Below, one piece after another: positions 12,459-29,641 of a stretch of 42,201 bases of DNA. Origin of the DNA: Candidatus Woesebacteria bacterium GW2011_GWF1_31_35 (GTDB lineage: Bacteria > Patescibacteriota > Microgenomatia > UBA8517); contig CP011214.1 of the NCBI GenBank assembly GCA_001029755.1, forward strand, positions 777,258-819,458, written 5' to 3'. A model generated the notes under the pieces. The model made no database searches. It was given only the letters and a program-made list of their open reading frames with translations, and was not told the origin of the DNA. Position numbers and translations under genes: made by a program. Position 1 is the stretch's first letter; every line of letters begins with the position of its first letter.

Positions 12459-12874
12459 TTATATATTGATTTTAAGAAATCTTCATAATTTCTAACATAA
12501 TCACTTTCTACATGCCTTTTGGAAGCAAGTACTAGAAGTATAGTATTTTTTTTGAAATCTGACATCTCATGCCAAACACCAGGTTCCAAAATAACACCTA
12601 CGTTGGGTTTATCTAAGTGTATTGTCTCTTTATTCTTACTGTCATCTAGAATTATATCAATTGATCCTTGTATGCAAAAGATTGCTTGCACTGTCTCCTT
12701 ATGAGTATGTGCACCTCTAACTGCACCTTCAGATACACCATAAATAAAATAAACTCTTTCAATTTTAAAAGGGATTTGATTAAGGTATTGTAACTGACAA
12801 AGTGATCCGTCAGTTGTCATTAATGGAGCTTCAATTAATTTTGCTAGTTTCTTAGCCATCCTTTTATTTTCCAA
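12455..12874 (-). CDS. WxcM/FdtA-type cupin, dTDP-4-keto-6-deoxyhexose 3,4-ketoisomerase-like
   Basis: 139 aa. GSLCQLQYLNQIPFKIERVYFIYGV...RGAHTHK matches the FdtA/QdtA pattern including the His-x-His pair. Sits directly upstream of a DegT aminotransferase. Confidence 0.7.
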   Translation of the reverse strand: MENKRMAKKLAKLIEAPLMTTDGSLCQLQYLNQIPFKIERVYFIYGVSEGAVRGAHTHKETVQAIFCIQGSIDIILDDSKNKETIHLDKPNVGVILEPGVWHEMSDFKKNTILLVLASKRHVESDYVRNYEDFLKSIYK

Positions 12875-14545: not shown

Positions 14546-15388
14546 TTGTATCATATAAAGATAATGTCAAGTATAACTACAATAACACCAAAAACAAATC
14601 CTTTTGATATCAACTGGAAAGAAATTTGGGAAAGCAAAGATTTGTTTTATTTTTTAACCTGGAGAGATATTAAAATTCGTTACAAGCAAACAATACTAGG
14701 GGTTTTGTGGATTATTTTACAACCACTAATTTCAATGGTTATTTTTACAATTGTTTTTGGAAATTTTGCTAAAATTCCATCAGATAATATCCCATATCCA
14801 ATATTTGTGTTTATTGGTTTGTTATTCTGGCAATTTTTTTCTTCTATATTAAATAGCTCTGCAAACAGTCTTGTTTCAAACGAAAGTATTATTAAAAAGG
14901 TTTATTTTCCCAGAATAATGGCTCCAATTTCATCAACATTTGCCCACCTTATTGATATGATTCCAACTATCATTATTTTATTTGGGCTTTTAATTTATTA
15001 TAAAGTAAGTCTTACAATTGAATCATTAATTTTTTTACCACTCCTTCTGATGTTAGTTTTGTTCTTTGCTTTGGGTATAGGAATGTTTCTTGCCCCATTA
15101 AATGCAAAGTTTAGAGATATTAGATATATACTTCCATTTTTTATACAACTAGGAATGTATGCCACTCCTGTAATATATCCCTCAAGTTTATTCGGTGGAT
15201 CAATGAGATATATAAGAATATTTAATCCCATTGCTGAGGCAATTGAAGTTACAAGAATGTCTTTTTTTACAGTTAGAACCATGGATTGGCCAATTCTTAT
15301 ATTATCAATTGTGATTACGTTTCTAACATTTTTAATTGGATTTTATTTTTTCAGAAAACAGGAAAGTAATTTTATTGACATACTATGA
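14546..15388 (+). CDS. wzm: ABC-2-type polysaccharide export permease (Wzm/TagG-like)
   Basis: 280 aa, 6 hydrophobic helices. LTWRDIKIRYKQTILGVLWIILQP is the classic ABC-2 N-terminal motif. The annotated start is TTG; an ATG at 14564 (MSSITT) is likely. 4-nt overlap with wzt. Confidence 0.8.
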   Translation: MYHIKIMSSITTITPKTNPFDINWKEIWESKDLFYFLTWRDIKIRYKQTILGVLWIILQPLISMVIFTIVFGNFAKIPSDNIPYPIFVFIGLLFWQFFSSILNSSANSLVSNESIIKKVYFPRIMAPISSTFAHLIDMIPTIIILFGLLIYYKVSLTIESLIFLPLLLMLVLFFALGIGMFLAPLNAKFRDIRYILPFFIQLGMYATPVIYPSSLFGGSMRYIRIFNPIAEAIEVTRMSFFTVRTMDWPILILSIVITFLTFLIGFYFFRKQESNFIDIL

Positions 15389-16638
15389 ACAAAGATATAG
15401 CAATAGAGGTAAAAAATTTAAGCAAAAAGTATAAGATAGGTATTTCAAACCCAAGTTACTATACATTAAGAGATTTAATATCAGATATACCGAAAGCAAT
15501 TAAAGATGGTTTTAAGAAGGGGGTTAAAAAAGAAGAAATATTTTGGGCTTTAAATGATATATCTTTTTCTCTTAAAAAGGGTGAAGTTTTGGGAATAATA
15601 GGTAAAAATGGGGCTGGGAAATCTACTTTACTTAAAATTCTTGCCAGAATCGTTCCTCCTACTCATGGATCTATTGAAATTTCAGGCAAGGTTTCAAGCA
15701 TGCTTGAAGTAGGAACTGGATTTAATCCAGAGTTAACGGGAAGAGAAAATATATATCTAAATGGTGCCATTTTAGGTATGAAAAAGGCACAAATTGATAA
15801 AAATCTGAATAAAATTATTGATTTTTCTGGAGTTAGAAAATTTATAGATACCCCAGTAAAAAGATACTCCAGCGGGATGCAAGTAAGACTTGCATTTTCA
15901 GTAGCTGCCCATCTTAAACCCCAGATTCTTCTTCTTGATGAAGTTTTATCTGTTGGAGATATGGCATTCCAACGAAAATCACTTGCAAAAATGTATTCTA
16001 TTACTAAAAACGAGGGTACTACTGCAGTTTTTGTAAGTCATGATTTAAATTCTGTGGATATGTTGTGTGATAAAGCGATACTTCTGGATGATGGAAAAAT
16101 TGTAAGTTTTGGGAAAACAAGAAAAGTTATCTCTGATTACGTAAAGGATTTTTATGAAAGCAGGAAGAAGGTAAAATTAAACACATCAAGAAGATCAGGA
16201 CCAGGACCATTAAGAATAATTAAATTTTGGATCGAAAACATGAAAGGCCAAAAAATTGTAACACCATTTAACGGAAAGCCATGCAAATTTGTTTTTGAAT
16301 ATAAATCAACCGACAATTTACCTCAAAAAGATGTAGACTTTGGTTTTTCGGTTCACACACTTACAAGACAGGCTCTATTCCTTCACTATTTTTCTTTTAC
16401 AAACCAAGTTATGGAAAAGTGTCCTGCAGCTGGAAGATTCTATTTTCAATTTGACAAACTTCCGTTAGCACAAGGAAGCTATATTATTGCAACTCGAATA
16501 TTAATTGGAGATAAGGAGGTAGACTATGTACCCGACGCATCCGAATTTTCTGTAGACGAAGGCGATTTCTACAAAACAGGGCTACCTGTTAGACAGAAAC
16601 ACAGTCCGTTTTATGTGGATGGCCACTGGTTATTTTAA
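15385..16638 (+). CDS. wzt: ABC polysaccharide exporter ATPase with an extra C-terminal beta-rich domain (Wzt/TagH-like)
   Basis: 417 aa. Walker A GKNGAGKST, signature YSSGMQVRLAF, Walker B ILLLDEVLSVGD. The extra domain of about 150 aa (approx. 16177-16635) occupies the position of Wzt C-terminal carbohydrate-binding modules. Confidence 0.85.
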   Translation: MNKDIAIEVKNLSKKYKIGISNPSYYTLRDLISDIPKAIKDGFKKGVKKEEIFWALNDISFSLKKGEVLGIIGKNGAGKSTLLKILARIVPPTHGSIEISGKVSSMLEVGTGFNPELTGRENIYLNGAILGMKKAQIDKNLNKIIDFSGVRKFIDTPVKRYSSGMQVRLAFSVAAHLKPQILLLDEVLSVGDMAFQRKSLAKMYSITKNEGTTAVFVSHDLNSVDMLCDKAILLDDGKIVSFGKTRKVISDYVKDFYESRKKVKLNTSRRSGPGPLRIIKFWIENMKGQKIVTPFNGKPCKFVFEYKSTDNLPQKDVDFGFSVHTLTRQALFLHYFSFTNQVMEKCPAAGRFYFQFDKLPLAQGSYIIATRILIGDKEVDYVPDASEFSVDEGDFYKTGLPVRQKHSPFYVDGHWLF

Positions 16639-16644
16639 CAAGAG

Positions 16645-18576
16645 ATGAAAAACAAAGTATTTATTGTTATTCCTGTCCACAATCGAATTAATTATACAAA
16701 AAAATGTTTGCACTCATTAGAAGGACAAACTTACAAAAATTTTGAGATAATTATTGTCGACGACGGATCCACAGATGGCACAGAAAAATATATTAAAAAT
16801 AAATATCCTTTTTGGACAGTCTTAAAAGAAAATGGTGATCTTTGGTGGACTAAATCAATACATAGGGGTATTTGTTATGCTTTGAATTATTCAAAAAAAG
16901 GTGATTTTATACTGTCATTAAATAATGATTGTTATGCAAAAAAGAATTATCTTGAGAATATTATAAATTCAAGTTTAAAAAATAAACGATCGATAGTAGG
17001 TTCATTTGTAGTCGACGCGAAAAACCCTAAAAAAATTATAGAATCAGGTATCAAAATAGACTGGTCGAAACACTCAATTACTGGGGTAGTTAATAAATTT
17101 AAAGATTTAGATAAACATATAAATTCCAATAACATAATAATTCAAATTGATACACTACCAGGCAAGGGAACTCTCATTCCCATAGAAGTTGTTGAAAAAG
17201 CTGGTAATTTTAATTACAAAAGACTTCCTCATTATATCTCTGACTATGAATTTTTTATTCGAGCAAAAAGATACGGATTTAATTTAATAGTATCTATTGA
17301 TTCAAAACTTTACAATTTTTCTAAAGCAACTGGCACCACACACCTTGCAAATTTTAAATCTAGTTACAAAGAAGTTTTACATGCTCTCTTTGCAAGAAAA
17401 TCTAAACTTAACATTGTTGATTATTTAAATTTTATTCTACTATCGTGCCCAAAAAAATATCTATATATTAATCTTAAACATTTTATGTCAAGAATATTAT
17501 ATTTTATTTTCAATCTTTTTCCATTTTGTTATGTAGGATTAATTGTATCTAAAATTTCTCTATTCTTTCATAATTTACCAATTGTAATTAAACAATTAAA
17601 TAAGCAATCAATAGGTAAATATAAATGCAAAATCTGTCATGGTTGTACATATCTTAAACACAAAGGCTTATTTGACGATAGACATGGATATCCCAAAAAA
17701 TTTGATATTTATAAATGTTTCAATTGTGGTTTTATACAAACGCAACCTCAACTATCTTTCGAGGAATTATCAGATATCTATACTAATTATTATCCAAAAA
17801 GAGATGCTGATATAGACGGTATTATTGATAGTGCAAAAAATATACCAAATAAAAATACTATTTTAAAAAATGGGTGGAGTACTACTTGTCATTATCAAAC
17901 AAAAACAGGTCAAAAAGTACTTGATGTCGGCTGTGGCACATGCCAATCATTACTTGAAATTAAAAGATTCGGCGGAAAAGCTTGGGGAATTGACCCTGAT
18001 AGAAATTCAAGGGAAGTTGCTAAAAAACTAAAATTAAATTTTCATTTAGGTACGATTCATGATTTTAATGCTAAAGAGAAGTTCTTTAATTTAATTACAG
18101 TTTCTCAAGTCTTGGAACACGAAGCTGATCCATTATTATTTTTACTAGAATGTAAAAAATATCTAAACAATTCAGGCAAGATAATTCTTAGTTTTCCTAA
18201 CACTGGTTCACTATCACAAAATATCTATGGCAAAAAGTGGATTCATTGGCATATTCCCTATCACTTGAATCATTTTAATAGAAAATCATTTGTTACTTTG
18301 GCTCAAAAGGCTGAATTAAAAATAGATTCGATAAAAACTGTCACACCGAATCTGTGGACAATCCTTCAAATTAAATTTACCCTGAACAATATCCGAAGGG
18401 GGCAAAGGGATTCAATGTGGGACAGTGGAAACAAGAACACTAAAATAATTAAGGTTTCAAGAAAAAAACAACTACTGTTAAAATTAATACCTTTAGTAAA
18501 TAATTTACTTTTTTTTAACAGGATAATTGATCTTTTGAATATGGGTGATAGTTTTGTAGTTACTCTTAAAAAATAA
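16645..18576 (+). CDS. Fusion protein: GT2 glycosyltransferase + TM hairpin + 4-Cys zinc ribbon + class I SAM methyltransferase
   Basis: 643 aa. VIPVHNRINYTKKCLHSLEGQTY..IIIVDDGSTDGT and SDYEFFIRAKRYGF give the GT2 part. Hydrophobic segment around aa 255-315. CKIC..x26..CFNC at 17626-17728. VLDVGCGTC is motif I, and VSQVLEHEADP follows. Confidence 0.75.
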   Translation: MKNKVFIVIPVHNRINYTKKCLHSLEGQTYKNFEIIIVDDGSTDGTEKYIKNKYPFWTVLKENGDLWWTKSIHRGICYALNYSKKGDFILSLNNDCYAKKNYLENIINSSLKNKRSIVGSFVVDAKNPKKIIESGIKIDWSKHSITGVVNKFKDLDKHINSNNIIIQIDTLPGKGTLIPIEVVEKAGNFNYKRLPHYISDYEFFIRAKRYGFNLIVSIDSKLYNFSKATGTTHLANFKSSYKEVLHALFARKSKLNIVDYLNFILLSCPKKYLYINLKHFMSRILYFIFNLFPFCYVGLIVSKISLFFHNLPIVIKQLNKQSIGKYKCKICHGCTYLKHKGLFDDRHGYPKKFDIYKCFNCGFIQTQPQLSFEELSDIYTNYYPKRDADIDGIIDSAKNIPNKNTILKNGWSTTCHYQTKTGQKVLDVGCGTCQSLLEIKRFGGKAWGIDPDRNSREVAKKLKLNFHLGTIHDFNAKEKFFNLITVSQVLEHEADPLLFLLECKKYLNNSGKIILSFPNTGSLSQNIYGKKWIHWHIPYHLNHFNRKSFVTLAQKAELKIDSIKTVTPNLWTILQIKFTLNNIRRGQRDSMWDSGNKNTKIIKVSRKKQLLLKLIPLVNNLLFFNRIIDLLNMGDSFVVTLKK

Positions 18577-18588
18577 TTACTTATCTTT

Positions 18589-19296
18589 TTATTTTTTTTC
18601 TAATAGATATTGAGTAAAAAATATTTTTTCATCTATCCCGTTGACATCAATAATTTCTAACGTATAATCACGTTTAACAATTTTTAATTTTAAACGGCTA
18701 AACATATTTTCCAACTCGGTTCTGTTTAATACAATTAGTGTATATTTTTCATTTGAATTTTTATAAATAACCGTCTGTTCAACAAAACATGTTTCGTTAT
18801 ATTTAGATACAGGCATTCTTAAAATCATCACATATTTATTAGATACTCTTTTCATTTCGGTTAGAGATTCTTTCCACCTATCTATTGTGTATTGTAATGA
18901 TGCCGAACTAAATACAATATCATATTGGTTATCGTTTGCTTCAATGTTGTCCGCGTATGACTTAAAGAACCGACCTGAAGGACTTGTTTTCTTGCACAAA
19001 TTTACTAGATAATCATTTATTTCACATCCGGAATATTTAATGTTAATTTGGATAAAATTTTTAAAAAAATTATAATATTCACCACTTCCACAACCAACAT
19101 CCAACAGCTTCAATTGGTTACTAACCTTAAAAAAAATGTCTTTACATTCAATATTAAAAAAATATCTAAAATCATCAACAGCTGGCGAAACTTTAGATTG
19201 AAGAGAAGTATCTGTGACAGTATCTGGTAGATATCCGCTTCGTGTCAAAGTAATTTTGTCTACCTTACTGTAACTGATTTTGGGGAAATTATTCAT
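18589..19296 (-). CDS. Class I SAM-dependent methyltransferase
   Basis: 235 aa. LLDVGCGSGEYY (motif I); YDIVFSSASLQY. Confidence 0.65.
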   Translation of the reverse strand: MNNFPKISYSKVDKITLTRSGYLPDTVTDTSLQSKVSPAVDDFRYFFNIECKDIFFKVSNQLKLLDVGCGSGEYYNFFKNFIQINIKYSGCEINDYLVNLCKKTSPSGRFFKSYADNIEANDNQYDIVFSSASLQYTIDRWKESLTEMKRVSNKYVMILRMPVSKYNETCFVEQTVIYKNSNEKYTLIVLNRTELENMFSRLKLKIVKRDYTLEIIDVNGIDEKIFFTQYLLEKK

Positions 19297-19315
19297 ATTA
19301 ATATATTAATTATTA

Positions 19316-20044
19316 CTAATTACTACATTCAAAATAGCAATCAGATCTTTGTTTGTTCCAAGTTGTTTTTTTAAGCTTTACATTGTTAAAAACTTCTTTT
19401 AAGAATTTTTTAAGTTCTATTTCAGATATAAACTCATTTTTATGTTCCCAATTGCTAATATCCTTTTTATCATGGTTGAAAATTGGTGTTGATCCAAGTA
19501 GCATACCATTTTTCTTTAAACCATTTTTGATATTTTTAAGTACTTGAATTCCGACTTCTGGTGGAAAGTGCTCAATCACGGCGTATAAAGTAACTATTTC
19601 AAAATAGTTACTCGGTATCTTCCATCTGGTTATATCTTTTTTTTGGAAGAGAATGTTATCTTTCCTGTACAATTTGTTTGCGTGGACTATCGCATTTCTA
19701 TCTTTATCTATTGCTAATATTTTTTTTGCTTTATTTGTATAAAATACCCCATCAAACAATCCATCACCACAACCAATGTCTAACAATGAATCATTATTAT
19801 TTATCCTGTCCAAAGTATAAAACGCTCTTTCCAACCAGAAAAAATTTTCAACTCCTCGAAGATAATCATATCTATGGTCATACCAAGAAGTACCTAATAC
19901 ACTAAACAATAATGTATATGTCTTACCTATTATCTTTCCAAATTCTATGTTAACAACAGCTAACACAGAAATAGATTTTTTGATTAAACCTCTGAGATTT
20001 GGATGCTTATTCCAAAATTTAAATATTTCATTTTCGTAAATCAT
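19316..20044 (-). CDS. Class I SAM-dependent methyltransferase
   Basis: 242 aa. LLDIGCGDGLFDG (motif I), ILAIDKD, FEIVTLYAVIEHF, LKKNGMLLGSTP. Confidence 0.7.
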   Translation of the reverse strand: MIYENEIFKFWNKHPNLRGLIKKSISVLAVVNIEFGKIIGKTYTLLFSVLGTSWYDHRYDYLRGVENFFWLERAFYTLDRINNNDSLLDIGCGDGLFDGVFYTNKAKKILAIDKDRNAIVHANKLYRKDNILFQKKDITRWKIPSNYFEIVTLYAVIEHFPPEVGIQVLKNIKNGLKKNGMLLGSTPIFNHDKKDISNWEHKNEFISEIELKKFLKEVFNNVKLKKTTWNKQRSDCYFECSN

Positions 20045-20074
20045 TTGATGATATTAACATAAACAGTTATGGAT

Positions 20075-21190
20075 TTAAACATAACCTGAAATAATTTTTA
20101 CTAATTCTTTCATTCTTATATTATATGTATGATCTTTTAGTGTTCTAGATTGGCCATTTTTTGCAATTTCCTCTCTTTCTTTATCATGGGATAAGTAATA
20201 ATTGATTTTATCAAACAGCTCTTTATTACTATCATATTCCACAATTTCTTTATTGACCTTAAACAAGCTTGATAAGTTTTTTTTCTTATCTGTGATTAAC
20301 AAAGCACCCATACCAGTTGCTTCAAAAAGCCTCATGTTATTTGCATAATTCTCAGCTACATCAATATGCCTATTTATAGTTATCTTACTTTCGGCTATTT
20401 TCTGATACATTTCCATTGCCCACGCCTGACCATGATGATATCTATATAATTTTGAAGAATGAGGTAATAATTCTTTTCCATATCCCCATACATCTAATCT
20501 TAATTTATTAGCTATGAAATTTAACATTTTTGTCCCTTTAACATGAGATGGACTAATTCCACCCACAAAAGTTAAATCATATTTTTTATTTACACTCTTT
20601 ATCTTTTTAAGAATTCGACTTTCAAAAGCCAAAGGTAAATATTCACTGTTAATACCCATCTTCTTAAATTTATCCACATAATGAGGAAATGATGTTATAA
20701 TTAAATCAAACTCTTTTAAATTTACTTTTGCTGATAAAGGGCATGCTATTTGTCCAACTAGAAGTTTACAATATCGCTTGGCTTGCCTGAGTGTATCAGG
20801 ATTTAAAATACTTAAATCCTGTATATAGATAATATCTACATTCTCTTTCTTTATTTGTTCAAGAGCAACTTTTTGTACCCAATCAGGTCTACCAATAAAT
20901 TTATGAATATAAGGTAAACTTTGTAATTTTGAAAAAAGATTTGTCTGACTAACCTTTATTCCATTTTCCTTCGCCCATTTATATTGTAAAATTTCATCAT
21001 TTACAATTAAATCTACTGCTTTATGGCCTATTTTTTTTAAATTATATGAATAAAAATCCGAAGTCCCAAAACAGGCATCTAATAGCTTCTTTTTAATTTG
21101 CTTATATTTTTTTGTCCTGAAGTCTTTATTTTTATTCCAAAAATTATTTAAAAAACCTTGATAATATGTATCAATAATTACAAATTTCAT
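20075..21190 (-). CDS. CgeB-like glycosyltransferase (GT-B, Glyco_trans_1_2-type C-terminal domain)
   Basis: 371 aa. NMRLFEATGMGALLITD....EIVEYDSNKELFDKINYYLSHDKEREEIAKNG matches the CgeB/spore-maturation-type GT C-terminus. Confidence 0.6.
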   Translation of the reverse strand: MKFVIIDTYYQGFLNNFWNKNKDFRTKKYKQIKKKLLDACFGTSDFYSYNLKKIGHKAVDLIVNDEILQYKWAKENGIKVSQTNLFSKLQSLPYIHKFIGRPDWVQKVALEQIKKENVDIIYIQDLSILNPDTLRQAKRYCKLLVGQIACPLSAKVNLKEFDLIITSFPHYVDKFKKMGINSEYLPLAFESRILKKIKSVNKKYDLTFVGGISPSHVKGTKMLNFIANKLRLDVWGYGKELLPHSSKLYRYHHGQAWAMEMYQKIAESKITINRHIDVAENYANNMRLFEATGMGALLITDKKKNLSSLFKVNKEIVEYDSNKELFDKINYYLSHDKEREEIAKNGQSRTLKDHTYNIRMKELVKIISGYV

Positions 21191-21729
21191 TTTGTTGCGA
21201 CAATATATATCGATGAATACCTTTTATTTATATCTTCATTCTTTCTATAATTTCGTTCCTTTACTTTTTTAAATCCTACATGTCGTAATTTTGAAATAAT
21301 CGAGGTTTTATCAAAAAATATTTTGTGTTCTCCATTTCTGTAAAGCAACCACATAATTATATCAAATGGGGTATCATATATTTTTTTATATTGTTGAGGA
21401 ATGTCATTAATTTTATTTCTTAAAAACTTCAAATCATTTTTTAAATATGCATTTATATATGGATTCAAATGGGGAACTGTAAAATTTAAATCTTTTCCTT
21501 TCTTCAAGACTCGATGACATTCAGATAGAACAAACAATAAATTATCAATATCTAAATGCTCAAAGAAATGATCAGATCTTATTTCTTCAACTGAATCATC
21601 GTCAAACGGAATGCCTTTTGTTAAATCCCAAACTAAATCTGCATCATTAGTTAAATCTATTCCTACATATCCATCACTCTTCATCCCACTACTTCCTAAA
21701 TTTAATTTAATACTTTTTAGTTTTTTCAT
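21187..21729 (-). CDS. Small methyltransferase-like protein (atypical glycine loop)
   Basis: 180 aa. IKLNLGSSGMKSDGYVGIDL at the motif I position; SDHFFEHL and LKKGKDLNFTVPH as post-I motifs. 4-nt overlap with the downstream gene. Confidence 0.4.
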   Translation of the reverse strand: MKKLKSIKLNLGSSGMKSDGYVGIDLTNDADLVWDLTKGIPFDDDSVEEIRSDHFFEHLDIDNLLFVLSECHRVLKKGKDLNFTVPHLNPYINAYLKNDLKFLRNKINDIPQQYKKIYDTPFDIIMWLLYRNGEHKIFFDKTSIISKLRHVGFKKVKERNYRKNEDINKRYSSIYIVATK

Positions 21730-23263
21730 TTTCCAATAACAACAAATCTAATGACTTCAATATTGAAATGTCATTAAAATATTTAAAATATCTCCTATTC
21801 TTAAATAATTTTAACATTTCATAACCTAAAAAAGTTCTCAACAAATATCCAAGCTTAATATATCTTGAAAGTCTGAAAATATTTATATTTGGTAATGGAT
21901 GGCTACAAACGGCATCGAAATCTAATGTGTTATCGTTTGACACGCTAAGATTCTTATCCTCAGGATATATTCCAAACATTCGAAAGTAATTTTTTTGCCA
22001 TTCTCTATTTTCAAATAAGTTATTTGGTAAAGCTAGTATTTTAGAGACATTATTAAATGACAAAAATGGTGACCATGACGGCATACCAAAATAGTCTGGA
22101 ATAGTCATCAAATATGACAAAAGTGAAAATTTTATACGAATAAATATTAATAAATTTTTGTTTCGATGTAGAAGATGTTTTTTAAAATCAGAATAAAATT
22201 TCTTATAATCTTGAATTTTCGGTTTTGTCTTTAAAATTGAAGGGTTTATTCTAAGGTCGTGAGAATAACCAATTTTCCACACATCAGAAAGACTTAAAAT
22301 ATTAATTGGGTTTATATTGCCACTCCAAGCATCACCATATATCCCACTTAATACACTCATATTATTTTTTTTATGAAGCATTTTTCTAATTTTTTGATAA
22401 AATTCAATATGATACATTCCATGTAAATGGGTCGATATACCATATAATTGATACCATTTTAAATAATAAACTAGATATTTAGAAAGGTATATATTTTTCC
22501 ACCAAATATTTAGTTTTTCAGTAACATATTTTGCATTTACAATTTCAGAACTAGGTTTATATTTATCATTGATTATTCCATATGTAAAAGCTCTAATTCT
22601 TTCTTTATTAGAAATAAGTGAATTCAAAAATCTAGAATCAAAACCTCCGCTAGTAGGAATAATTATATTACCTTTAATTTTTTTTTCTGGTATTTTAATA
22701 TATTTATTAATGGTTTTAACAACTAAATCTGAGGTTGATTTACGTTTGTTAATACTAATTTTTTTCATATATATATCATCTTTAAATACTCGTCTTATAT
22801 CCTCATTTATAATTAATTTACTAAAATATCTCATTAATTGAACATTATCTACTGGGGTTTTTTCGAAACTAACGTATCCAAAATCTAAATAGTTATATAA
22901 TCCACTGATGTTTAAAGTCATATTATTAACATCGTAAGTTTTTTTATATAACGTACTAATTATTTTTAACTTTTTGTTGTAGTAAATAGGAATTGATCCA
23001 AGCCAATCATTTTCAATTATTATTGAATTATCATTAAATTTTATTAAAACATTTCTATCATCGAGCTTCTTATATAATGGAAACGAAAGCGAAATAGTAT
23101 TTTTATCAAGATAGCATTTATTTAAATTCCCGATACCCCAAAGATAAATGTTGTATCCTAAATTTATGAAACTTTTTATCGACAATCCTGAATTAAAAAT
23201 ATCAATATCATCACAGTTTATTTTACTTTTGGAAATAGCAAAACCTATTATCTTGTTATTCAT
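21707..23263 (-). CDS. AsnB-family PP-loop adenylating enzyme lacking the glutaminase Cys nucleophile
   Basis: 518 aa. Starts MNNKIIGF, so there is no Cys2. Retains NDWLGSIPIYYN (compare RDRIGKKPLKY in the canonical copy) and YLDFGYVSFEKTP. The PP-loop PTSGGFDS is encoded at 22634-22651. Confidence 0.65.
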   Translation of the reverse strand: MNNKIIGFAISKSKINCDDIDIFNSGLSIKSFINLGYNIYLWGIGNLNKCYLDKNTISLSFPLYKKLDDRNVLIKFNDNSIIIENDWLGSIPIYYNKKLKIISTLYKKTYDVNNMTLNISGLYNYLDFGYVSFEKTPVDNVQLMRYFSKLIINEDIRRVFKDDIYMKKISINKRKSTSDLVVKTINKYIKIPEKKIKGNIIIPTSGGFDSRFLNSLISNKERIRAFTYGIINDKYKPSSEIVNAKYVTEKLNIWWKNIYLSKYLVYYLKWYQLYGISTHLHGMYHIEFYQKIRKMLHKKNNMSVLSGIYGDAWSGNINPINILSLSDVWKIGYSHDLRINPSILKTKPKIQDYKKFYSDFKKHLLHRNKNLLIFIRIKFSLLSYLMTIPDYFGMPSWSPFLSFNNVSKILALPNNLFENREWQKNYFRMFGIYPEDKNLSVSNDNTLDFDAVCSHPLPNINIFRLSRYIKLGYLLRTFLGYEMLKLFKNRRYFKYFNDISILKSLDLLLLENEKTKKY

Positions 23264-24420
23264 GATAGTTTACTTTTGATAAATGATTTAAATTGTCTAT
23301 ATTTTAAATTATCAATTATGTTATTCTTATTACCTATTTTATTTGTTAATACGCTTATCGCATTTAATATGAATTCTCTATGTGACCTATTTCTAATTAA
23401 AACTGACAACAGTAACAAATTACTATTATTAACTTTAAAATTCATTTGACTAAAATAGCCTTTATAATAGGAATTAAACATATCAACAGACAGTATATTA
23501 AGAATTGAATTATACTTATTTGAATCTTCTAGAACATTATTTATGTTTTTTAGATACTTTTTTTCTAGTAGGTTCAACTTACTTACATTTAAATCTTGGT
23601 AATTAGTGTGAACAGCATAAAGATTACCGCTTAATATATTATTTCTACCTATCTCCAAAACCAATATATTTCCATAGCTTTTTTTATACGAGGAGTGAAT
23701 AAAATTTCCTAAGCTATAATAAATTAGCCCATTCTTATATTTTTCATATCCTTGTGGTATGTGTGGATGATGAGAAACAACAACCTTTGCTCCAAAATCA
23801 ATCAATTCTCTATATCTATTTCTTAAATAAGAAGAAGGTAATGGAATTTCTTCACCACCACCATGTCCGTATATAATTACAATCTTTCCTAATTTACACA
23901 GCATCTTTACAGTTTCAGTAATTTCTGTATTGTAAATACTGTAGTATCCAAATTGAGTATCACTTGAAACACCAAATTCATCTTCAGCGACAGCTAAAAC
24001 AACAATTTTATCAGTCAAATTTACATATTTTTTTGACTCATCTTTATTTCTTCCTGCACCAAAAAAAATAATATTTTTTTTTATTAAAAATTTCTGTGTT
24101 GACTCTACCCCGTCTAATCCATAATCAGATATATGATTATTTGCACCACCAAAATAATTAATATTTAGTATTTTGCATAACTTATCAATACTTTCAGGAG
24201 TCTGAAATAGATTGGAACCAGCTTTAGGTAATGGATGTTTAGTCTTTTCTTTAACTAATATTGGAGCCTCAAGATTTGCAATTCTAAAGTCTGCTTGTTT
24301 AAATAAGTCAATTGTAGATTTCGAAATATTATAATCGTCATCGTTTAAACAAATATCTCCACAGAATAATATTTTATTCGACGTTTTAATACGAGAAAAA
24401 AAAGGTTCTTTATTTTTCAT
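23260..24420 (-). CDS. CapA/PgsA-family metallophosphoesterase-like protein (PGA_cap)
   Basis: 386 aa, no TM segment. FCGDICLND, RIANLEAPI, GGANNHISDYGLDG, GHGGGEE, VSHHPHIPQGYE and YSLGNF are the full motif series of the CapA family. Confidence 0.75.
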   Translation of the reverse strand: MKNKEPFFSRIKTSNKILFCGDICLNDDDYNISKSTIDLFKQADFRIANLEAPILVKEKTKHPLPKAGSNLFQTPESIDKLCKILNINYFGGANNHISDYGLDGVESTQKFLIKKNIIFFGAGRNKDESKKYVNLTDKIVVLAVAEDEFGVSSDTQFGYYSIYNTEITETVKMLCKLGKIVIIYGHGGGEEIPLPSSYLRNRYRELIDFGAKVVVSHHPHIPQGYEKYKNGLIYYSLGNFIHSSYKKSYGNILVLEIGRNNILSGNLYAVHTNYQDLNVSKLNLLEKKYLKNINNVLEDSNKYNSILNILSVDMFNSYYKGYFSQMNFKVNNSNLLLLSVLIRNRSHREFILNAISVLTNKIGNKNNIIDNLKYRQFKSFIKSKLS

Positions 24421-26377
24421 TTAAAGCTTTATAGGAAAAAAAAAATAGATTTTCTTTTATTTGAGTAGAATTACAAACTACAAAATTATTGTCATGTCTC
24501 ATTTTTGTCTCTTTTGGTCCTTCATACCAATATTTAGATTTAACTTCTTTATCCTCAATACATTTAGAAGGAGTTACTGTCCAAAATTCTATTTTTTTCT
24601 CAATGGCACTCGATTTAATCGTTTCTAAAGATGTCGTATCAAGAGTCTGTCCGCCATAATAGCAATTAATTAAAAACGACCTCATATATCCCTCATCATC
24701 ATACCAAATCATATCAGGATCATATCTTGCTAATGATACGATTCCCCCAGGAGGGTTTTCACACCAAATAACAGCATCGTACACTCTTGGCAATCTAAAC
24801 TTTATCCAATTATATATATCATCTTTACCAATAGAATAATTAATTTCGTTCCAGGTAAGAGTTACTAAACTATTAGTCTTATTAACTACAATTATATAAT
24901 TTCGAATTATTGATAATAAAAATAATACTGCAACAATAATCTTAACAAATTTAGGAAACATATTACTCTTTATAAAGATATATGAAGAAATTGTAATTGA
25001 AAGTAATATTAATATTTGCATATGTTGATGATACCTAATATAAAAGCCTGATAATAACCTTAAGCTAATAAGCTCAAATATAAAAATAAAAAGATAGAAT
25101 ACAACTAATTTCTTTTCTTTAACAAATTTTTTACAAAATATTGAGAATGTCGAGAGAAGTGCCATAATCACAATCGGCTTACCGCCGGGAATAAGGCTTA
25201 ATATTATACTTTTTATATTAACTAAATTTATTTTAGTGGTCCATTCCCCAAAAAAGGAAGCTCCTGTATTGCAATCCATTGCGTATTTACCCCAACATGG
25301 AAAAAGAAATGGATAAATAGGATTCCCATAAATTATTATATTTTTTATATACCAGTATCCTCCAAACATCAAAAATATTAACGTCAAATAGACAATGTTT
25401 TTTATATATTTTTTAGTAAATAGTTTTTTTATTATTGAAAAGTTAAAGATTAAAAGCGCCAGAACTATAGGAATAAATGCTGTAATTATCGTATATTTTG
25501 TACCAAGCGACATAGCTAAAAATATTGTTGCTAAAATTAATATTTCAAATTTATTTTTCTTTTCAAGTACATTTAATGAAGAAAAAATCAAGCCTAATAT
25601 AAAAAGGGCATAAGCAGAAATATCAACAAAACCAACAGTTGATGTAAAAACTATATCCTGAGGAAGGCTAAAAAATAACAATACGAAGAAAATGCCAGTA
25701 AAAAGATTGAGACGTTTTCTTAAAAAATGTCCAACAAAAACTATCGACGTAATAAGAATTGAAAATAATGTAAGTCTTACAATTGAATAAGTTTTGGTAA
25801 GAGAAAATCCTAAAACAAAGAATGTGTCAATTAATCTGGGTGCGTTATTTAGCACTCCCCCATCAAATCTCCAAACATCAGCAAGCTGATAATTTGCAGT
25901 GTATGGAGATATAAAATGATAAGCCATTTCATCACTATAATATGGAGGTAGTGAAGCCTTAACAAAAACAGCAGGTAACAAGGGTATTACTATTATTAAA
26001 AACGGGAAGAGAATTTTAACTTGCTTTATTAATTTTACATACTCTTTATTTTTAATATACCAAGGTAATGTTAAAACCAAAATAAATGTGGCACTAATTA
26101 ATATTACTAACTGTGTTGGACGTATTAGAAACCCTGCCAAAAACCATAGAAATATAAAAAAACCAAAACCAATTAACCAATTTAAAATTCTAGTATTATC
26201 AGATAGTTGACGATTTTTGATAAAATATTTTTTAATAAAAGTTCCAACCACGTCAAAGAAAAATATCATAATTATAAATATTAAAATATTTCTAATATTT
26301 AGCGGTTGAAAATAATCAGAGAGTTTAGGTGACATATTTAGTCTAAAAATACTTGTATGCATTGTATCATTATGCAT
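24410..26377 (-). CDS. Large GT-C-fold glycosyltransferase-like membrane protein with a Cys-containing C-terminal domain
   Basis: 655 aa with at least 12 hydrophobic helices. PPYYSDEMAYHF (DE motif) and SLGTKYTI motif. The soluble C-terminal domain of about 160 aa contains 4 Cys. Confidence 0.55.
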   Translation of the reverse strand: MHNDTMHTSIFRLNMSPKLSDYFQPLNIRNILIFIIMIFFFDVVGTFIKKYFIKNRQLSDNTRILNWLIGFGFFIFLWFLAGFLIRPTQLVILISATFILVLTLPWYIKNKEYVKLIKQVKILFPFLIIVIPLLPAVFVKASLPPYYSDEMAYHFISPYTANYQLADVWRFDGGVLNNAPRLIDTFFVLGFSLTKTYSIVRLTLFSILITSIVFVGHFLRKRLNLFTGIFFVLLFFSLPQDIVFTSTVGFVDISAYALFILGLIFSSLNVLEKKNKFEILILATIFLAMSLGTKYTIITAFIPIVLALLIFNFSIIKKLFTKKYIKNIVYLTLIFLMFGGYWYIKNIIIYGNPIYPFLFPCWGKYAMDCNTGASFFGEWTTKINLVNIKSIILSLIPGGKPIVIMALLSTFSIFCKKFVKEKKLVVFYLFIFIFELISLRLLSGFYIRYHQHMQILILLSITISSYIFIKSNMFPKFVKIIVAVLFLLSIIRNYIIVVNKTNSLVTLTWNEINYSIGKDDIYNWIKFRLPRVYDAVIWCENPPGGIVSLARYDPDMIWYDDEGYMRSFLINCYYGGQTLDTTSLETIKSSAIEKKIEFWTVTPSKCIEDKEVKSKYWYEGPKETKMRHDNNFVVCNSTQIKENLFFFSYKALNEK

Positions 26378-26417: not shown

Positions 26418-26993
26418 ATGAAATTTGCAGATATAACTACACCAGTAAGAGCTAAGTTAATAGCAAAAACCTATAAAGATTGGATAAAACCAAAAGATAA
26501 TGTACTAGATATAGGTTGTGGAAATGGAGTTGTAAGTCTTTTGTTAAAAAAACTTCTAAAAATTAACATAACCGGATGTGATAGAGAAAAATATTTGATT
26601 AGAAATATAACCTACAAATGTATGGTAAATGATTCTACATTACCGTTTAATAATGAAGTTTTTAATGTTTCAATGTTTAATGATGTCCTCCACCATACCT
26701 CTTACAAAAATCAAATTGGACTAATTCTTGAGGCATTAAGAGTATCAAAAAGGGTAACTATTTTTGAATTAAAACCAACGATTATTTGTAAGTTTTTAGA
26801 CTTTACCTTAAACAAGATACATAATCCAAGAATGGATATCCCTTTCACATATAGAAGTGAAATAAAATGGGAAAATTTATTCAAAAATAACAATATTAGT
26901 TACAAAAAGAAAACTGTTAAATCTCCAATTTTTTATCCATTTTCTCATGCAGCATATTTATTAACGAAAACAAAAACTCTATTGAAAAGTTGA
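26418..26993 (+). CDS. Class I SAM-dependent methyltransferase
   Basis: 191 aa. VLDIGCGNGVVS (motif I); FNVSMFNDVLHH. The 3' end overlaps the convergent GT2 gene by 15 nt. Confidence 0.7.
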   Translation: MKFADITTPVRAKLIAKTYKDWIKPKDNVLDIGCGNGVVSLLLKKLLKINITGCDREKYLIRNITYKCMVNDSTLPFNNEVFNVSMFNDVLHHTSYKNQIGLILEALRVSKRVTIFELKPTIICKFLDFTLNKIHNPRMDIPFTYRSEIKWENLFKNNNISYKKKTVKSPIFYPFSHAAYLLTKTKTLLKS

Positions 26994-27794
26994 GACATAT
27001 ATTTCAAACAAAAACCTCATTATTCCGTTAATATTTCTTTTATCTAACTCTCTATAAAGTTGTTTATAAGAATTCCATTTCTTTAGTAAATTTTCACTAT
27101 TTAGCGAGACATTCTTCTTATGATATCTATATTTTACAAGTCTTTCTGGAACTATAATAATATTTTGTACCCTATCAATTACTTCTAAAACATACTTCCA
27201 ATCTTCACCACCATGATTATAATTACTATCAAATTTTAAACCTTTTATTTTATTTGCTTTAAAAAGCATATGGGAAAGTTGACACAAGTAAAAACCCCCT
27301 TTGGGCATCTTTCCACAATTTAAATAAATAAATATCATTTGAAAAACATCTCTTATCAAAGAAAGTAAATACACTTTTAACTTGAATGATTTAGATAAAC
27401 ACTTGGCAAAAATTGGTTTAGATAACGCGACAGTTACATCTGATTGTGTAATTTTTAATTTATTAACTGATTTTTCTAAAAAATTAGGATCCCACACATC
27501 ATCTGAATCTAAAAAGGCTACATATTCTGAATCTAAATACTTTAAAGCTTGATTTCTAGATGGCCCAGATTTTAAATTCTTTTTATTTCTAATTATTTGT
27601 ACTTGAGGAAATAGCCCACTAATAACTTTTTTTACAGGCTCAGGATAATTGTCATCGATAATTATAATTTTTATCTTAAATTTACCTTTTTGACTATAAA
27701 CACTAGTCAAAGTCTCAATTAATAAATCGTATCGACCATAAGTTGGAATTATTACGGTTACAGAATTTTTACTTTCTTGCATAGATATATCCAA
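26979..27794 (-). CDS. Glycosyltransferase family 2
   Basis: 271 aa. VTVIIPTYGRYDLLIETLTSVYSQ, IIIIDDNYPEP, YVAFLDSDDVW. Confidence 0.75.
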   Translation of the reverse strand: MDISMQESKNSVTVIIPTYGRYDLLIETLTSVYSQKGKFKIKIIIIDDNYPEPVKKVISGLFPQVQIIRNKKNLKSGPSRNQALKYLDSEYVAFLDSDDVWDPNFLEKSVNKLKITQSDVTVALSKPIFAKCLSKSFKLKVYLLSLIRDVFQMIFIYLNCGKMPKGGFYLCQLSHMLFKANKIKGLKFDSNYNHGGEDWKYVLEVIDRVQNIIIVPERLVKYRYHKKNVSLNSENLLKKWNSYKQLYRELDKRNINGIMRFLFEIYVSTFQ

Positions 27795-28572
27795 TGTCGT
27801 TTTCTATTGAGTGATACCAATGTTTTACTTTAAACCCTTTCAATTTCAACAAGTCTAATAAAAGATTATGATTTTGTTCTGGAATAAGTTCATGAAATTC
27901 CATTGTTATTTTTTTAATATTTTTAAATACATCATCTGGACAATTATTTAAAATGTCATATTCTGCACCTTCACAATCAATTTTAAGTAAATCACACTTC
28001 TTAATATTATTTTTTATAAAAATATCTTTTAAAGCTATAATTTTAACGGATTCAAATTTTTTCTCTCCCCTGGTTTTATATACACTTCTTTGACCAGATA
28101 TACCCATATCATATAGTTTGATTTTTCCACTTTTACCACCAACGGCATTTTTAATTGGTATTATTGAATTTTCAAATCCGTTTAAATTAATGTTTTCTAC
28201 TAATTGGTTGTAAGTTTTTTGGGAAGGTTCAAAAGCAAATATTTTTGAAGTTTTATTTTTATTCGCAGCATAAATTGAAAATACTCCGATATTTGCACCT
28301 ATATCAATAATTGTAGAATGATTTTTCAATTTATAAATTTTGTAATCATTATTATTAAATATTTCATTTATTATTAAAGTGTCCATAATATGAATTACTT
28401 TAAAAATTATTCCGTTTTTTAATTTCATAAAATACCCCTTTCTGAAATCTAAAAAACCAAATGCAGATAATGGAATTAAAATCCAATTTTTAAATGTATG
28501 TATCATCCCGATAGAATTACTAAAGTATAAAAATTTCTTTATAATTTTTGGTTTTTTAATTGGCTTCTTCAT
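27769..28572 (-). CDS. FkbM-family SAM-dependent methyltransferase
   Basis: 267 aa. IIDIGANIGVFSIYAA, IFAFEPSQKTYNQLVENI, LLKIDCEGAEYDIL. Confidence 0.75.
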   Translation of the reverse strand: MKKPIKKPKIIKKFLYFSNSIGMIHTFKNWILIPLSAFGFLDFRKGYFMKLKNGIIFKVIHIMDTLIINEIFNNNDYKIYKLKNHSTIIDIGANIGVFSIYAANKNKTSKIFAFEPSQKTYNQLVENINLNGFENSIIPIKNAVGGKSGKIKLYDMGISGQRSVYKTRGEKKFESVKIIALKDIFIKNNIKKCDLLKIDCEGAEYDILNNCPDDVFKNIKKITMEFHELIPEQNHNLLLDLLKLKGFKVKHWYHSIENDIGYIYARK

Positions 28573-28588
28573 ACAGTATATGTTTTAT

Positions 28589-29641
28589 TCAAGGTAATCG
28601 ATTAACCAAATGTGTTTTAACTGTTTCTATTAAAAACACCCAGATTAATACAATTGACATTATAGCTCCTAAAAGCATTTTTGTACCCATATGTTTATCT
28701 GGTAAGAGATATATCACTAACCCAACAATCAACAAAAAAAGTAAAACTATTGGAACCAAATAGTTATTATTTATCAATTTTGATACAGGGTTATGTACAG
28801 ATTCTATAGCAAAACCTAAAAACGTTAGTGCTAAGAAACTAAAAAGTGTGACCGTAAACAACAGAATGAAAAGACTTGTCAGACCAAAATTCGTTTGAAA
28901 TGCAAGTAGAGACAAAATAAGAAATATTACCATCAGATATATGAAAAGTACTGGCTTCAATAAAATAATTGATTTTAGATGTCTCCAACCATCAGACCAT
29001 CTTGATAAATGGGGCTTATTTCCTCTTTTATCTTTCATAAATTTTATAGGTACTTCTTGATATTTACCTCTTTTTATTGCAGTTTTAAGAAGTAGTTCGC
29101 TTGCCCACTCCATTCCTGAATTTCTCATATTCAAATTGTTATAGAAAGATCTTTTGACCATTCTCATACCTGAATTACAATCTGTTGTTGGAAGGTTATA
29201 CAGTAATTTTATTAATAATGTAAGGATTGGTGTTCCAAAATATCTATTTAAAAATGGCATAGCTTTTTTTTGTATTGTTCCCTTAATTCTAGATCCTAGG
29301 ATTAAATCTGGATTGCCCCTAATTAAAGGTTTAAACTTATCAAGATTTGAAAAAGGATAACTTAAATCAGCGTCTGCAAAAACGACATAATCTCCCATAG
29401 AATTTTTAATTCCCCAATGAAGTGCTGCCCCATATCCCTTTACGGGAACTTGTATAATTTTAATACCTTTAATTTTTCTAATAATTTCTAAAGATCCATC
29501 AGTACTTCCATTATCTGCCACAACTATTTCATACTTGTTTTTAAAAAGTTTATCAGCATTAATTTTTGCATCAAAAATAGCTTTCTTGATTGTTATTTTT
29601 TCATTAAGACAGGGAATTAATATAGAAATAGTATATTTCAT
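28589..29641 (-). CDS. GT2 with C-terminal TM bundle: polyprenyl-phosphate sugar synthase-like (GtrB/DPM1/ArnC type)
   Basis: 350 aa. ISILIPCLNEKITI, VVADNGSTDGS, VVFADADLSYP. About 4 C-terminal hydrophobic helices. Confidence 0.7.
   Translation of the reverse strand: MKYTISILIPCLNEKITIKKAIFDAKINADKLFKNKYEIVVADNGSTDGSLEIIRKIKGIKIIQVPVKGYGAALHWGIKNSMGDYVVFADADLSYPFSNLDKFKPLIRGNPDLILGSRIKGTIQKKAMPFLNRYFGTPILTLLIKLLYNLPTTDCNSGMRMVKRSFYNNLNMRNSGMEWASELLLKTAIKRGKYQEVPIKFMKDKRGNKPHLSRWSDGWRHLKSIILLKPVLFIYLMVIFLILSLLAFQTNFGLTSLFILLFTVTLFSFLALTFLGFAIESVHNPVSKLINNNYLVPIVLLFLLIVGLVIYLLPDKHMGTKMLLGAIMSIVLIWVFLIETVKTHLVNRLP

Follow-up and report, generated by a model that had tools for sequence, protein, structure and literature searches.

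In the window analysed here (the whole 42,201-nucleotide stretch, positions 777,258 to 819,458 of contig CP011214.1), which at 27% GC represents a surface-glycan island, by Pfam content, of a Woesebacteria-like groundwater bacterium of the candidate phyla radiation (CPR), seven genes form one co-directional, tightly packed unit. Two of them encode an asparagine-synthetase-B (AS-B)-fold protein, which we named AsnBL, and a soluble relative of CapA/PgsA. We read the unit as the local version of a widespread cytoplasmic glycan-tailoring module, whose core consists of AsnBL, a soluble CapA/MslH-type protein, a dedicated Leloir glycosyltransferase (here of the CgeB type) and S-adenosylmethionine (SAM)-dependent methyltransferases, and which would perform epimerisation, amide formation and methylation of a carboxylate-bearing residue. 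This reading appears to us about evenly poised between right and wrong. The coupling of AsnBL to its partners, both by genomic neighbourhood and by gene fusion, defines a widespread glycan-tailoring unit that is apparently unstudied.

Gene arrangement

The seven open reading frames (ORFs) lie on the minus strand from 26377 to 18589 (Table 1), with successive overlaps of 11, 4, 23 and 4 nt followed by gaps of 30 and 19 nt. Upstream, the unit is delimited by a divergent methyltransferase gene at 26418, 40 nt away, and downstream by a convergent gene for a glycosyltransferase family 2 (GT2)–methyltransferase fusion ending at 18576, 12 nt away. A scan for promoters and terminators, uninformative at a base composition of 27% GC, returned 108 promoter-like sites against 89 expected and no terminator-like site between 18 and 30 kb of the window. 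Co-directional genes, overlaps or short gaps and the lack of an internal terminator are the features by which an operon is recognised, and the chain displays all of them. The sequence is present in groundwater metagenomes; none of its sequence words was found in metatranscriptome runs from the same groundwater studies.

The sequence-only reading of this DNA had listed a 655-aa GT-C glycosyltransferase with a Cys-containing outer domain, a cytoplasmic CapA/PgsA-family protein, an AsnB-type enzyme devoid of a glutaminase nucleophile, a CgeB-like glycosyltransferase and three methyltransferases. Our ORF calls reproduced the coordinates, strand, lengths, overlaps and gaps of the whole chain, and the components were upheld as well: the GT-C by its Foldseek-matched fold and the four invariant Cys of its C-terminal soluble domain, the CapA-like protein by its PGA_cap match and missing membrane anchor, AsnBL by its modelled fold, PP-loop and N-terminus (MNNK), the CgeB-like protein at the level of its Pfam domain, and the methyltransferases by Pfam, weakly in the case of the 180-aa protein.

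The AsnBL family

Pfam yielded no match for AsnBL at E ≤ 0.01, and NCBIfam gave sub-threshold matches to AsnB (TIGR01536, 17.5 bits against a cut-off of 267) and to NAD synthase. When the AlphaFold2 model (predicted local distance difference test, pLDDT, 91) was compared with the PDB by Foldseek, carbapenam synthetase (1q15, E = 7.6e-12) and β-lactam synthetase were the best matches, followed by E. coli AsnB, human ASNS and TsnB9; ranks 1–22 spanned E-values from 7.6e-12 to 2.4e-8 and template-modelling (TM) scores of 0.46–0.57. Profile–profile alignment (hhalign) against canonical AsnB (probability 95.7%) placed residues 83–261 of AsnBL onto residues 139–322 of AsnB, i.e., the inter-domain region and the PP-loop. 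The N-terminal domain of AsnBL thus corresponds to a shortened, Cys-less remnant of the glutaminase domain. Indeed, the protein begins with MNNKIIGF and so has no Cys2, and no N-terminal Cys is conserved among 24 aligned family members. By contrast with this loss, the PP-loop is found as SGGFDS (S205-G-G-F-D-S210), and the SGGxDS pattern is invariant across the same 24 sequences. Judged from its model, AsnBL is a two-domain member of the AS-B superfamily at the fold level, and the missing Cys2 and the family scores below the cut-offs place it outside the glutamine-hydrolysing AsnB enzymes.

AS-B-fold PP-loop enzymes adenylate a carboxylate and hand the acyl group to a nitrogen nucleophile. Because it has neither Cys2 nor a glutaminase domain, AsnBL cannot use glutamine itself, so that the nitrogen must come either from free ammonia or from an amine, external or intramolecular.

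The alignment of 24 members also revealed the invariant residues H279, H281, Y284, D311, R376, K378 and R420 and the family-specific motifs ENDWLGSIP, HLHGMYH and SGIxGDAWSG. The family comprises 318 representatives (clusters at 50% identity) at E ≤ 1e-30 and 607 at 1e-10, includes both long (~530 aa) and short (~455 aa) members, has no Pfam or NCBIfam model, and carries mostly hypothetical labels in the source data. A plasmid collection held no homologues. Sequence searches of the PDB were uninformative for AsnBL, the GT-C, the CgeB-like glycosyltransferase, and three proteins described below (a DUF362 partner, a 328-aa neighbour and P0389). In a Thermodesulfovibrio locus (L003:8001-9586), the ORF call gave AsnBL 467 aa, with a 55-aa ORF behind it that looks like a C-terminal part detached through a frameshift or an error in sequencing.

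Coupling of AsnBL to its partners across phyla

Selection by AsnBL similarity alone gave 81 distinct loci from about 20 phylum-level groups, including archaea. They derive from Bacteroidota, Planctomycetota, Cyanobacteriota, Bacillota, Gamma- and Alphaproteobacteria, Desulfobacterota, Spirochaetota, Chloroflexota, Acidobacteriota, Ignavibacteriota, Nitrospirota, Synergistota, Omnitrophota, Patescibacteria, Actinomycetota, others, and the methanogens Methanoculleus and Methanohalophilus. A CapA-like gene was present in 55 of the 81 loci. According to the ORF calls, 52 of 53 CapA-like copies occupied position –1 or +1 relative to AsnBL, in either order, and 52 of 53 were on the same strand. After removal of 20 redundant Sphingobacterium loci, the gene was still found in 37 of 61, covering at least 14 phylum-level groups, two methanogen genera among them.

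Furthermore, the two proteins were found fused. PGA_cap and AsnBL domains are joined in L048 (1025 aa), P0283, P0286 and P0318, and in the opposite order in P0311. Larger fusions have the architectures FkbM+PGA_cap+Methyltransf_24+AsnBL (L021, Okeania), TPR+PGA_cap+AsnBL+Methyltransf_23 (L050), PGA_cap+small methyltransferase+FkbM followed by AsnBL+methyltransferase (L027), AsnBL+CgeB-like+methyltransferase (P0246, 43% identity to the CgeB-like protein of the window), AsnBL+TPR+methyltransferase+GNT-I-like (P0245) and CgeB-like+methyltransferase (L048). Of the seven genes in the window, five are reached by these Rosetta-stone links. Methyltransferases of the FkbM, TIGR04325 and other kinds also recur as neighbours of AsnBL, and all loci inspected were polysaccharide clusters with Wzx or Wzm/Wzt, Wzx being at least as frequent as Wzm/Wzt. 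We conclude that the conserved core is the dyad of AsnBL and the CapA-like protein together with methyltransferases.

The third partner varied. A CgeB-like transferase was encoded near AsnBL in 8 of the 81 loci and a 307-aa GT-A-like protein in 49; the two never co-occurred (hypergeometric P = 3e-4), which suggests that they are alternative dedicated transferases of AsnBL. The CgeB-like gene lies directly downstream of AsnBL in L001, L009, L036, L039, L048, L056, L085 and L086, one intervening gene further in L054, and, in L019, two genes further at a distance of about 3.9 kb downstream. The GT-A-like protein (e.g., L046:12532-13455), the commonest third partner of the AsnBL/CapA pair, shows weak similarity to GNT-I, GT2, EpsD and NTP_transferase and is absent from the window.

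Three points of the sequence-only reading, which is borne out in part, can be addressed here. Random juxtaposition, which would have undone it, does not hold, given that AsnBL and CapA are co-conserved across phyla and fused in several lineages. The supposed triad of CapA, AsnB-like and CgeB-like proteins survives as the dyad (55/81 loci), while its CgeB-like member is confined to 8/81, with the GT-A-like protein present instead in 49. Finally, that reading knew the combination from no characterised pathway; searches of Pfam, NCBIfam, PDB names and the literature likewise found no described pathway for it.

The CapA-like protein and the case for an epimerase

The CapA-like protein belongs to the Pfam family PGA_cap (PF09587; E = 5e-43, 147.8 bits against a cut-off of 27). 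MslH is its sole solved relative in the PDB (8gq9, E = 2e-13), and the MslH model was its best NCBIfam match. No N-terminal hydrophobic segment was evident (maximum Kyte–Doolittle 19-residue average of 0.66 in the first 70 residues), an N-terminal anchor was absent from 12 of 12 AsnBL-linked CapA-like proteins inspected, and Pfam revealed no PgsB (Mur-ligase-like) or PgsC gene in the window.

MslH epimerises, in a Ca-dependent manner, the Trp at the C-terminus of a lasso peptide precursor. It binds one Ca(II) through Glu44, Asn87, His259 and His261 and operates by metal-assisted His/Asp acid–base chemistry with the dyads His88/Asp91 and His295/Asp11 (PMC10406935). The CapA-like protein possesses the residues aligned with D11, E44, N87, H88, D91 and H261 of MslH, plus an SHHPH motif aligned with H295, and these positions are conserved or invariant in 51 AsnBL-linked CapA-like proteins. 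CapA has also been proposed as the epimerase of poly-γ-glutamate (PGA) (PMC8179263), and B. subtilis without pgsA forms PGA that is 95% L, compared with 25% L when pgsA is present (PMC6029982). An epimerase reading of the AsnBL partner agrees with the MslH mechanism, with the proposal for CapA and with this L-rich polymer.

Additional support came from a partner swap. In seven loci (L029, L032, L036, L039, L042, L051 and L056; e.g., L051:8363-9931) from Acidobacteriota, Planctomycetota, Omnitrophota and Victivallales, a 522-aa DUF362 protein is encoded directly upstream of AsnBL, and none of the seven contains a CapA-like gene (chance of zero overlap, P = 2e-4). DUF362 is a member of the lactate-racemase (LarA) clan (PMC11770544). 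Thus, two unrelated folds stand beside AsnBL, both with relatives that invert a carbon next to a carboxylate, and this is the best available hint to the role of the CapA-like protein. By analogy, it is most simply read as an epimerase at the carbon adjoining a free, metal-bound carboxylate, which could be the Cα of an amino acid in amide linkage or a uronic acid's C5.

Glycosyltransferases, methyltransferases and the CPR arrangement

The GT-C (P0001) itself showed no Pfam match above threshold; 11 of 35 aligned homologues matched PMT_2. With an AlphaFold2 model of pLDDT 89.7, its top 14 PDB matches in Foldseek were all GT-C enzymes, the structural matches including ALG12, ArnT, AglB, ALG9, STT3, DPY19, AftA, EmbC and AftD. 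The protein has about 13 transmembrane helices, an invariant PPxxxDExxY motif in the first outer loop (D149 and E150 invariant) and a C-terminal soluble domain with the invariant residues C539, C572, C606 and C635. The modelled GT-C membrane fold and the acidic first-loop motif identify it as a GT-C of the PMT_2/ArnT-like kind. Its start may lie five codons downstream (P0125, 650 aa).

The CgeB-type transferase matched PF13524 (Glyco_trans_1_2; E = 8e-32, 110.7 bits against a cut-off of 25), a family that includes CgeB. The smallest protein of the unit, MT180, gave a weak, partial Methyltransf_11 match and matched the SAM methyltransferase 8k76 in the PDB at 1.4e-3. Its family is conserved (75% identity in L089, 61% in L086, 48–51% in a cyanobacterium and a planctomycete); homologues adjoin CapA in L026 and L045, and a related domain is part of the CapA fusion of L027. 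MT242 had no homologue in the other loci and is missing from L089. TIGR04325 methyltransferases, the family to which MT235 is related, neighbour AsnBL in eight other loci, and an MT235-related domain is fused to the CgeB-like glycosyltransferase in L048 and P0246.

The gene order of the window reads GT2, FkbM, GT2, an inverted methyltransferase gene, GT-C, CapA, AsnBL, MT180, CgeB-like, MT242, MT235. Its closest relative, L089, has GT2, FkbM, GT2, the inverted methyltransferase gene, GT-C, FkbM, CapA, a protein X (P0389), MT180, CgeB-like and a methyltransferase, then the convergent genes GT2–methyltransferase, Wzt and Wzm; identity to the window amounts to 74% for GT-C, 67% for CapA, 75% for MT180, 70% for the CgeB-like protein and 90% for Wzt. 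The family of P0389 is rare (10 sequences, no Pfam match), with one member labelled 'predicted SAM-dependent methyltransferase'. Two CPR-like loci are arranged as FkbM, GT-C, AsnBL, CgeB-like, methyltransferase (L085) and as GT-C, MT180, GT2, AsnBL, CgeB-like (L086), and L001 as FkbM, CapA, AsnBL, CgeB-like, with no GT-C. The module itself is plastic, as expected of a glycan-diversifying cassette. The GT-C family was found mostly in CPR-type metagenome contigs, and its one named member agrees with a Woesebacteria origin of the window. Among the loci examined, a GT-C gene adjoined the module solely in the four of CPR or CPR-like type, and L090 carries the family without the module. Its place in the operon, as originally described, is hence valid for the window and these relatives, but not for the module in general.

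The surrounding glycan island

The remainder of the island encodes a Wzm/Wzt exporter whose Wzt has the C-terminal domain, a Wzx flippase, numerous GT2 and GT4 enzymes, several PMT_2 GT-C proteins, FkbM and class I methyltransferases, and FdtA/DegT. The block immediately upstream of the module (26418..29641) has the same gene order in L089 and L086 at 56–76% identity, and it probably belongs to the pathway of the module. Within this block, the 191-aa methyltransferase gene interrupts a row of minus-strand genes, sharing 15 nt with the 3′ end of the GT2 gene; its inverted placement is kept in L086 and L089 (56–72% identity). The Wzm/Wzt and GT2–methyltransferase neighbours recur in L001, L085 and L089. 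A canonical AsnB is encoded elsewhere in the island and might provide ammonia or perform a separate amidation. In L087 a canonical Cys2 AsnB gene (L087:7041-8816) lies directly upstream of CapA–AsnBL.

Table 1 Features of the window
Feature	Position	Strand	Length (aa)	Basis or remark
GT-C glycosyltransferase (P0001)	24410..26377	-	655	PMT_2-related
Soluble CapA/PGA_cap-family protein (P0123), MslH/PgsA-like, candidate alpha-carbon epimerase	23260..24420	-	386	Pfam PGA_cap
AsnBL (P0002), predicted AS-B-fold PP-loop enzyme, Cys-less truncated N-terminal domain	21707..23263	-	518	AlphaFold2/Foldseek
MT180 (P0124), small class-I-like SAM methyltransferase, conserved module accessory	21187..21729	-	180	Weak Methyltransf_11
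CgeB-type glycosyltransferase	20075..21190	-	371	Pfam Glyco_trans_1_2
MT242, class I SAM methyltransferase, lineage-specific	19316..20044	-	242	Pfam Methyltransf_25/11/23
MT235, class I SAM methyltransferase, TIGR04325-related	18589..19296	-	235	Pfam and NCBIfam
Upstream block, methyltransferase	26418-26993	+	191	Pfam
Upstream block, GT2	26979-27794	-		Pfam
Upstream block, FkbM methyltransferase	27769-28572	-		Pfam
Upstream block, GT2	28589-29641	-		Pfam
Wzm/Wzt ABC exporter (Wzt C-terminal carbohydrate-binding domain) and GT2–methyltransferase fusion	14546..18576	+		Pfam; convergent to module
Canonical AsnB with Cys2 and glutaminase domain	4349-6178			Pfam

Further observations concern other parts of the island and of related clusters. 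A 328-aa protein (12844-13830) adjoining FdtA/DegT has a DGD motif and no Pfam or NCBIfam match, and looks like a GT-A/GT8-type transferase; homologues occur in 11 AsnBL loci, and a related neighbour cluster often accompanies a DegT gene. Three large ORFs at 2226-3467, 31810-33357 and 35612-37279 (413, 515 and 555 aa) gave no Pfam match, the first of them showing a weak match to the AZOBR_p60025 'cell surface glycopolymer formation' family. Two CPR glycan clusters (L087:1691-5873 and L090:15301-20085) contain a set of SIS, ribulose-phosphate 3-epimerase, a ~490–530-aa protein and Hydrolase_3 (KdsC-like) beside Wzm/Wzt, which may allow organisms without lipopolysaccharide to make a Kdo-like acidic sugar.

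Proposed pathway and alternatives

In the tailoring pathway that we propose, the partner glycosyltransferase would install, or the pathway would supply, a residue or substituent with a free carboxylate, for which uronic, ulosonic, amino and hydroxy acids come into question. The carbon next to this carboxylate would be epimerised by the CapA-like enzyme through MslH-type metal-assisted His/Asp acid–base chemistry, and AsnBL would adenylate the carboxylate and form an amide from it, taking the nitrogen from free ammonia or from an amine, which may be intramolecular. The methyltransferases would methylate the same residue, and the product would be exported through the adjacent Wzm/Wzt (or Wzx). 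In the CPR lineage, alternatively, a polyprenyl-phosphate-linked sugar could be passed to the PMT_2-type GT-C for transfer on the outside, as by ArnT. Fusion to a glycosyltransferase and methyltransferases implies a common target residue for all these enzymes, on the cytoplasmic side. Amide formation on a carboxylated substituent, with glycosylation and methylation, had been suggested from the sequence before; the enzyme folds that it calls for were confirmed, and we infer the substrate, the product, what each step does chemically and in which order the steps follow.

Several observations weigh against this pathway. Genes that might provide the carboxylate or the amine are inconsistently present within 10 kb or in the vicinity of AsnBL: UDP-sugar dehydrogenase (Ugd) homologues were found within 10 kb in 5/81 loci only, DegT aminotransferases near 11/81, polysaccharide deacetylases near 4/81 and canonical AsnB near 5/81, and the window itself yielded no carboxylate source. 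With such genes near only 5–14% of loci, the substrate is not inferable from the neighbourhood. The chemistry assigned to AsnBL is a prediction from sequence and model. To our knowledge, moreover, all characterised Cys-less AS-B homologues (β-lactam synthetase, carbapenam synthetase and the lasso cyclases) form intramolecular amides, so that intermolecular amidation is not the default expectation. About a quarter of the AsnBL loci have neither CapA nor DUF362, and L085 and L086 contain AsnBL without CapA. Conversely, L089 retains CapA, MT180, the CgeB-like gene and a methyltransferase and carries the unrelated 675-aa protein X in the place of AsnBL (L089:13739-15766), which indicates that CapA and AsnBL are not strictly interdependent. 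As for the epimerase, the Ca ligand His259 of MslH aligns with Tyr184 of the CapA-like protein, and the MslH-aligned residues are also generic to the metallophosphoesterase scaffold, so they fail to separate an epimerase from a hydrolase. A single transcript for the seven genes, lastly, is presumed from their architecture.

Of the competing explanations, the best placed, though in our estimate unlikely, is that AsnBL acts as a lactam synthetase. It would then close an intramolecular amide (for instance an amino-uronic lactam, or an amino sugar's N-acyl group of the 5-oxoproline type), while CapA would set a stereocentre and the methyltransferases would C- or O-methylate the ring. This would account for carbapenam and β-lactam synthetases being the best PDB fold matches and for the missing glutaminase nucleophile, a trait of all known intramolecular AS-B enzymes; the window also contains the FdtA/DegT pair for a 3-amino-3,6-dideoxyhexose and no recognisable N-acyltransferase. 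However, AsnB and ASNS reached Foldseek scores only slightly weaker, with TM scores of ~0.5 for all, amino-sugar genes were near 11/81 loci only, and the catalytic Tyr–Glu dyad and Lys443 of the β-lactam/carbapenam synthetases could not be mapped onto AsnBL.

Somewhat harder to credit is a sequence of amidoligase and phosphatase, in which AsnBL would join a sugar carboxylate to a phospho-amine (ethanolamine or serinol phosphate) and the CapA-like protein, as a metallophosphoesterase, would strip the phosphate. The glucuronamide pathway of Campylobacter jejuni reportedly proceeds in this way, with an amidoligase followed by a phosphatase (Cj1438/Cj1435 work). PGA_cap adopts the calcineurin-like metallophosphoesterase fold, its metal-ligand motifs are intact, and adjacency or fusion of CapA to an amide-forming enzyme is what consecutive steps would lead one to expect. 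Yet hydrolysis of phosphate esters is not known from any PGA_cap member, the DUF362 (LarA-clan) protein in CapA's place in seven loci suits an epimerase better, and no conserved aminotransferase or decarboxylase for phospho-amine synthesis was found nearby. Furthermore, the only biochemically defined member of PGA_cap, MslH, is an epimerase with one Ca(II) (PMC10406935).

We consider it very improbable that the product is a polyamide or peptide, made either by an iterative AsnBL ligase with a CapA epimerase, as a PgsB-independent analogue of PGA synthesis, or as a lasso-like ribosomally made peptide with post-translational modifications (RiPP) by an MslC-like cyclase with an MslH-like epimerase. 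Pairing of an amide ligase with a CapA-type protein is indeed known from PgsB/PgsA and MslC/MslH (PMC8179263, PMC10406935), and the MslH model was the top NCBIfam match of the CapA-like protein. Against this, neither PgsB/PgsC nor a RiPP recognition element (RRE, PqqD-like) nor a transglutaminase-type leader peptidase occurs in the window or the annotated loci, all contexts are glycan clusters, and the fusion partners are glycosyltransferases and methyltransferases. Pfam families of lasso precursors, RREs and leader peptidases were absent among window ORFs of at least 90 aa, a limit that a very short precursor ORF could escape. With no RRE, peptidase or precursor found and a uniformly glycan context, a lasso or RiPP pathway was rejected as the principal explanation.

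That unrelated tailoring genes, sharing no pathway, came together by chance in a hypervariable glycan island deserves next to no credence: such islands do shuffle genes, L089 exchanges AsnBL and MT242 is lineage-specific, but adjacency extends over at least 14 phylum-level groups, and the several independent domain fusions, in both orders, already contradict it.

Returning to the tailoring pathway, we tentatively extend it to a broader and rather more doubtful proposal, namely that the dyad of AsnBL and the CapA-like protein, with DUF362 as an alternative to CapA, could supply the enzymes still missing for amide-type decorations that carry inverted stereocentres on the surface glycans of bacteria and archaea. 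Such decorations might be uronamides, or uronoyl or aminoacyl amides with D-amino acids or C5-epimerised uronic acids. Here a metal-dependent epimerase of the PgsA/MslH type would work on a carboxylate borne by a carbohydrate, after which the glutaminase-less AS-B enzyme would lock in the product as an amide.

Significance and relation to known systems

The function of CapA/PgsA has been in question for decades, and a soluble, non-PGA branch working with a different amide-forming enzyme offers a tractable test of the epimerase hypothesis. If the broader proposal is true, CapA-type epimerases would extend from peptides to glycans and the module would constitute a new pan-phylum tailoring system. 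Culturable carriers (Sphingobacterium, Pontibacter, Rheinheimera and Nostoc) make its study possible outside the uncultured CPR. For CPR biology, the module would provide a concrete pathway of variable surface decoration, and the swap of AsnBL among close relatives is consistent with serotype-like diversification.

With β-lactam and carbapenam synthetases, AsnBL shares the two-domain AS-B fold, a dead N-terminal domain and an intact PP-loop, so that carboxylate adenylation followed by amide formation would be expected; it differs in its low identity to them (~10–12%), its own motifs and its location in glycan rather than antibiotic clusters. Compared with canonical AsnB, its N-terminal domain is ~55 residues shorter. 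AsnB-type amidotransferases of envelope glycans include the WbpS type, which forms uronamides, and LtsA/AsnB1, which amidates peptidoglycan. Like the role proposed for AsnBL, they represent AS-B enzymes of an envelope-glycan pathway that convert a carboxylate into an amide, but they have retained Cys2 with the glutaminase domain and score above the Pfam thresholds, neither of which is true of AsnBL.

The CapA-like protein shares the PGA_cap family with MslH and PgsA/CapA and conserves the residues that align with the Asp/His dyads and most Ca ligands of MslH. Both relatives are paired with an ATP-dependent amide-forming enzyme, MslH with the AsnB homologue MslC and PgsA with PgsB. In contrast to PgsA, the CapA-like protein is soluble, has no membrane anchor and no PgsB/PgsC partners, and thus falls outside PgsBCA-type systems; in contrast to MslH, it occurs in a polysaccharide context with no precursor peptide or RRE, carries a ~140-residue C-terminal extension and has Tyr at the position of His259.

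The Arn pathway (ArnC as GT2, ArnD, and ArnT as GT-C) and the three-component GT2/flippase/GT-C systems likewise have a PMT_2/ArnT-fold GT-C beside cytoplasmic tailoring enzymes and GT2s. By this analogy, the GT-C beside the tailoring genes suggests that a tailored polyprenyl-phosphate sugar might be transferred outside the membrane. The module nevertheless lacks ArnA/B/D homologues, and its GT-C has a Cys-rich C-terminal domain and belongs to a CPR-type family that also occurs without the module. WbdD and WsaE are multidomain, methyltransferase-containing terminators of ABC-transporter-dependent glycans. They resemble the module in that fusions of glycosyltransferase and methyltransferase (and TPR) domains stand beside Wzm/Wzt with a Wzt C-terminal binding domain; in the module, however, Wzx is at least as frequent, a kinase domain is absent, and AsnBL and CapA have no counterpart in those systems. 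Each of the folds, as well as AS-B-type amidation of envelope glycans, was thus already known, while the glutaminase-less AsnBL family, the link between it and a soluble CapA-type partner (or DUF362) and the fused glycosyltransferase/methyltransferase architecture are new.

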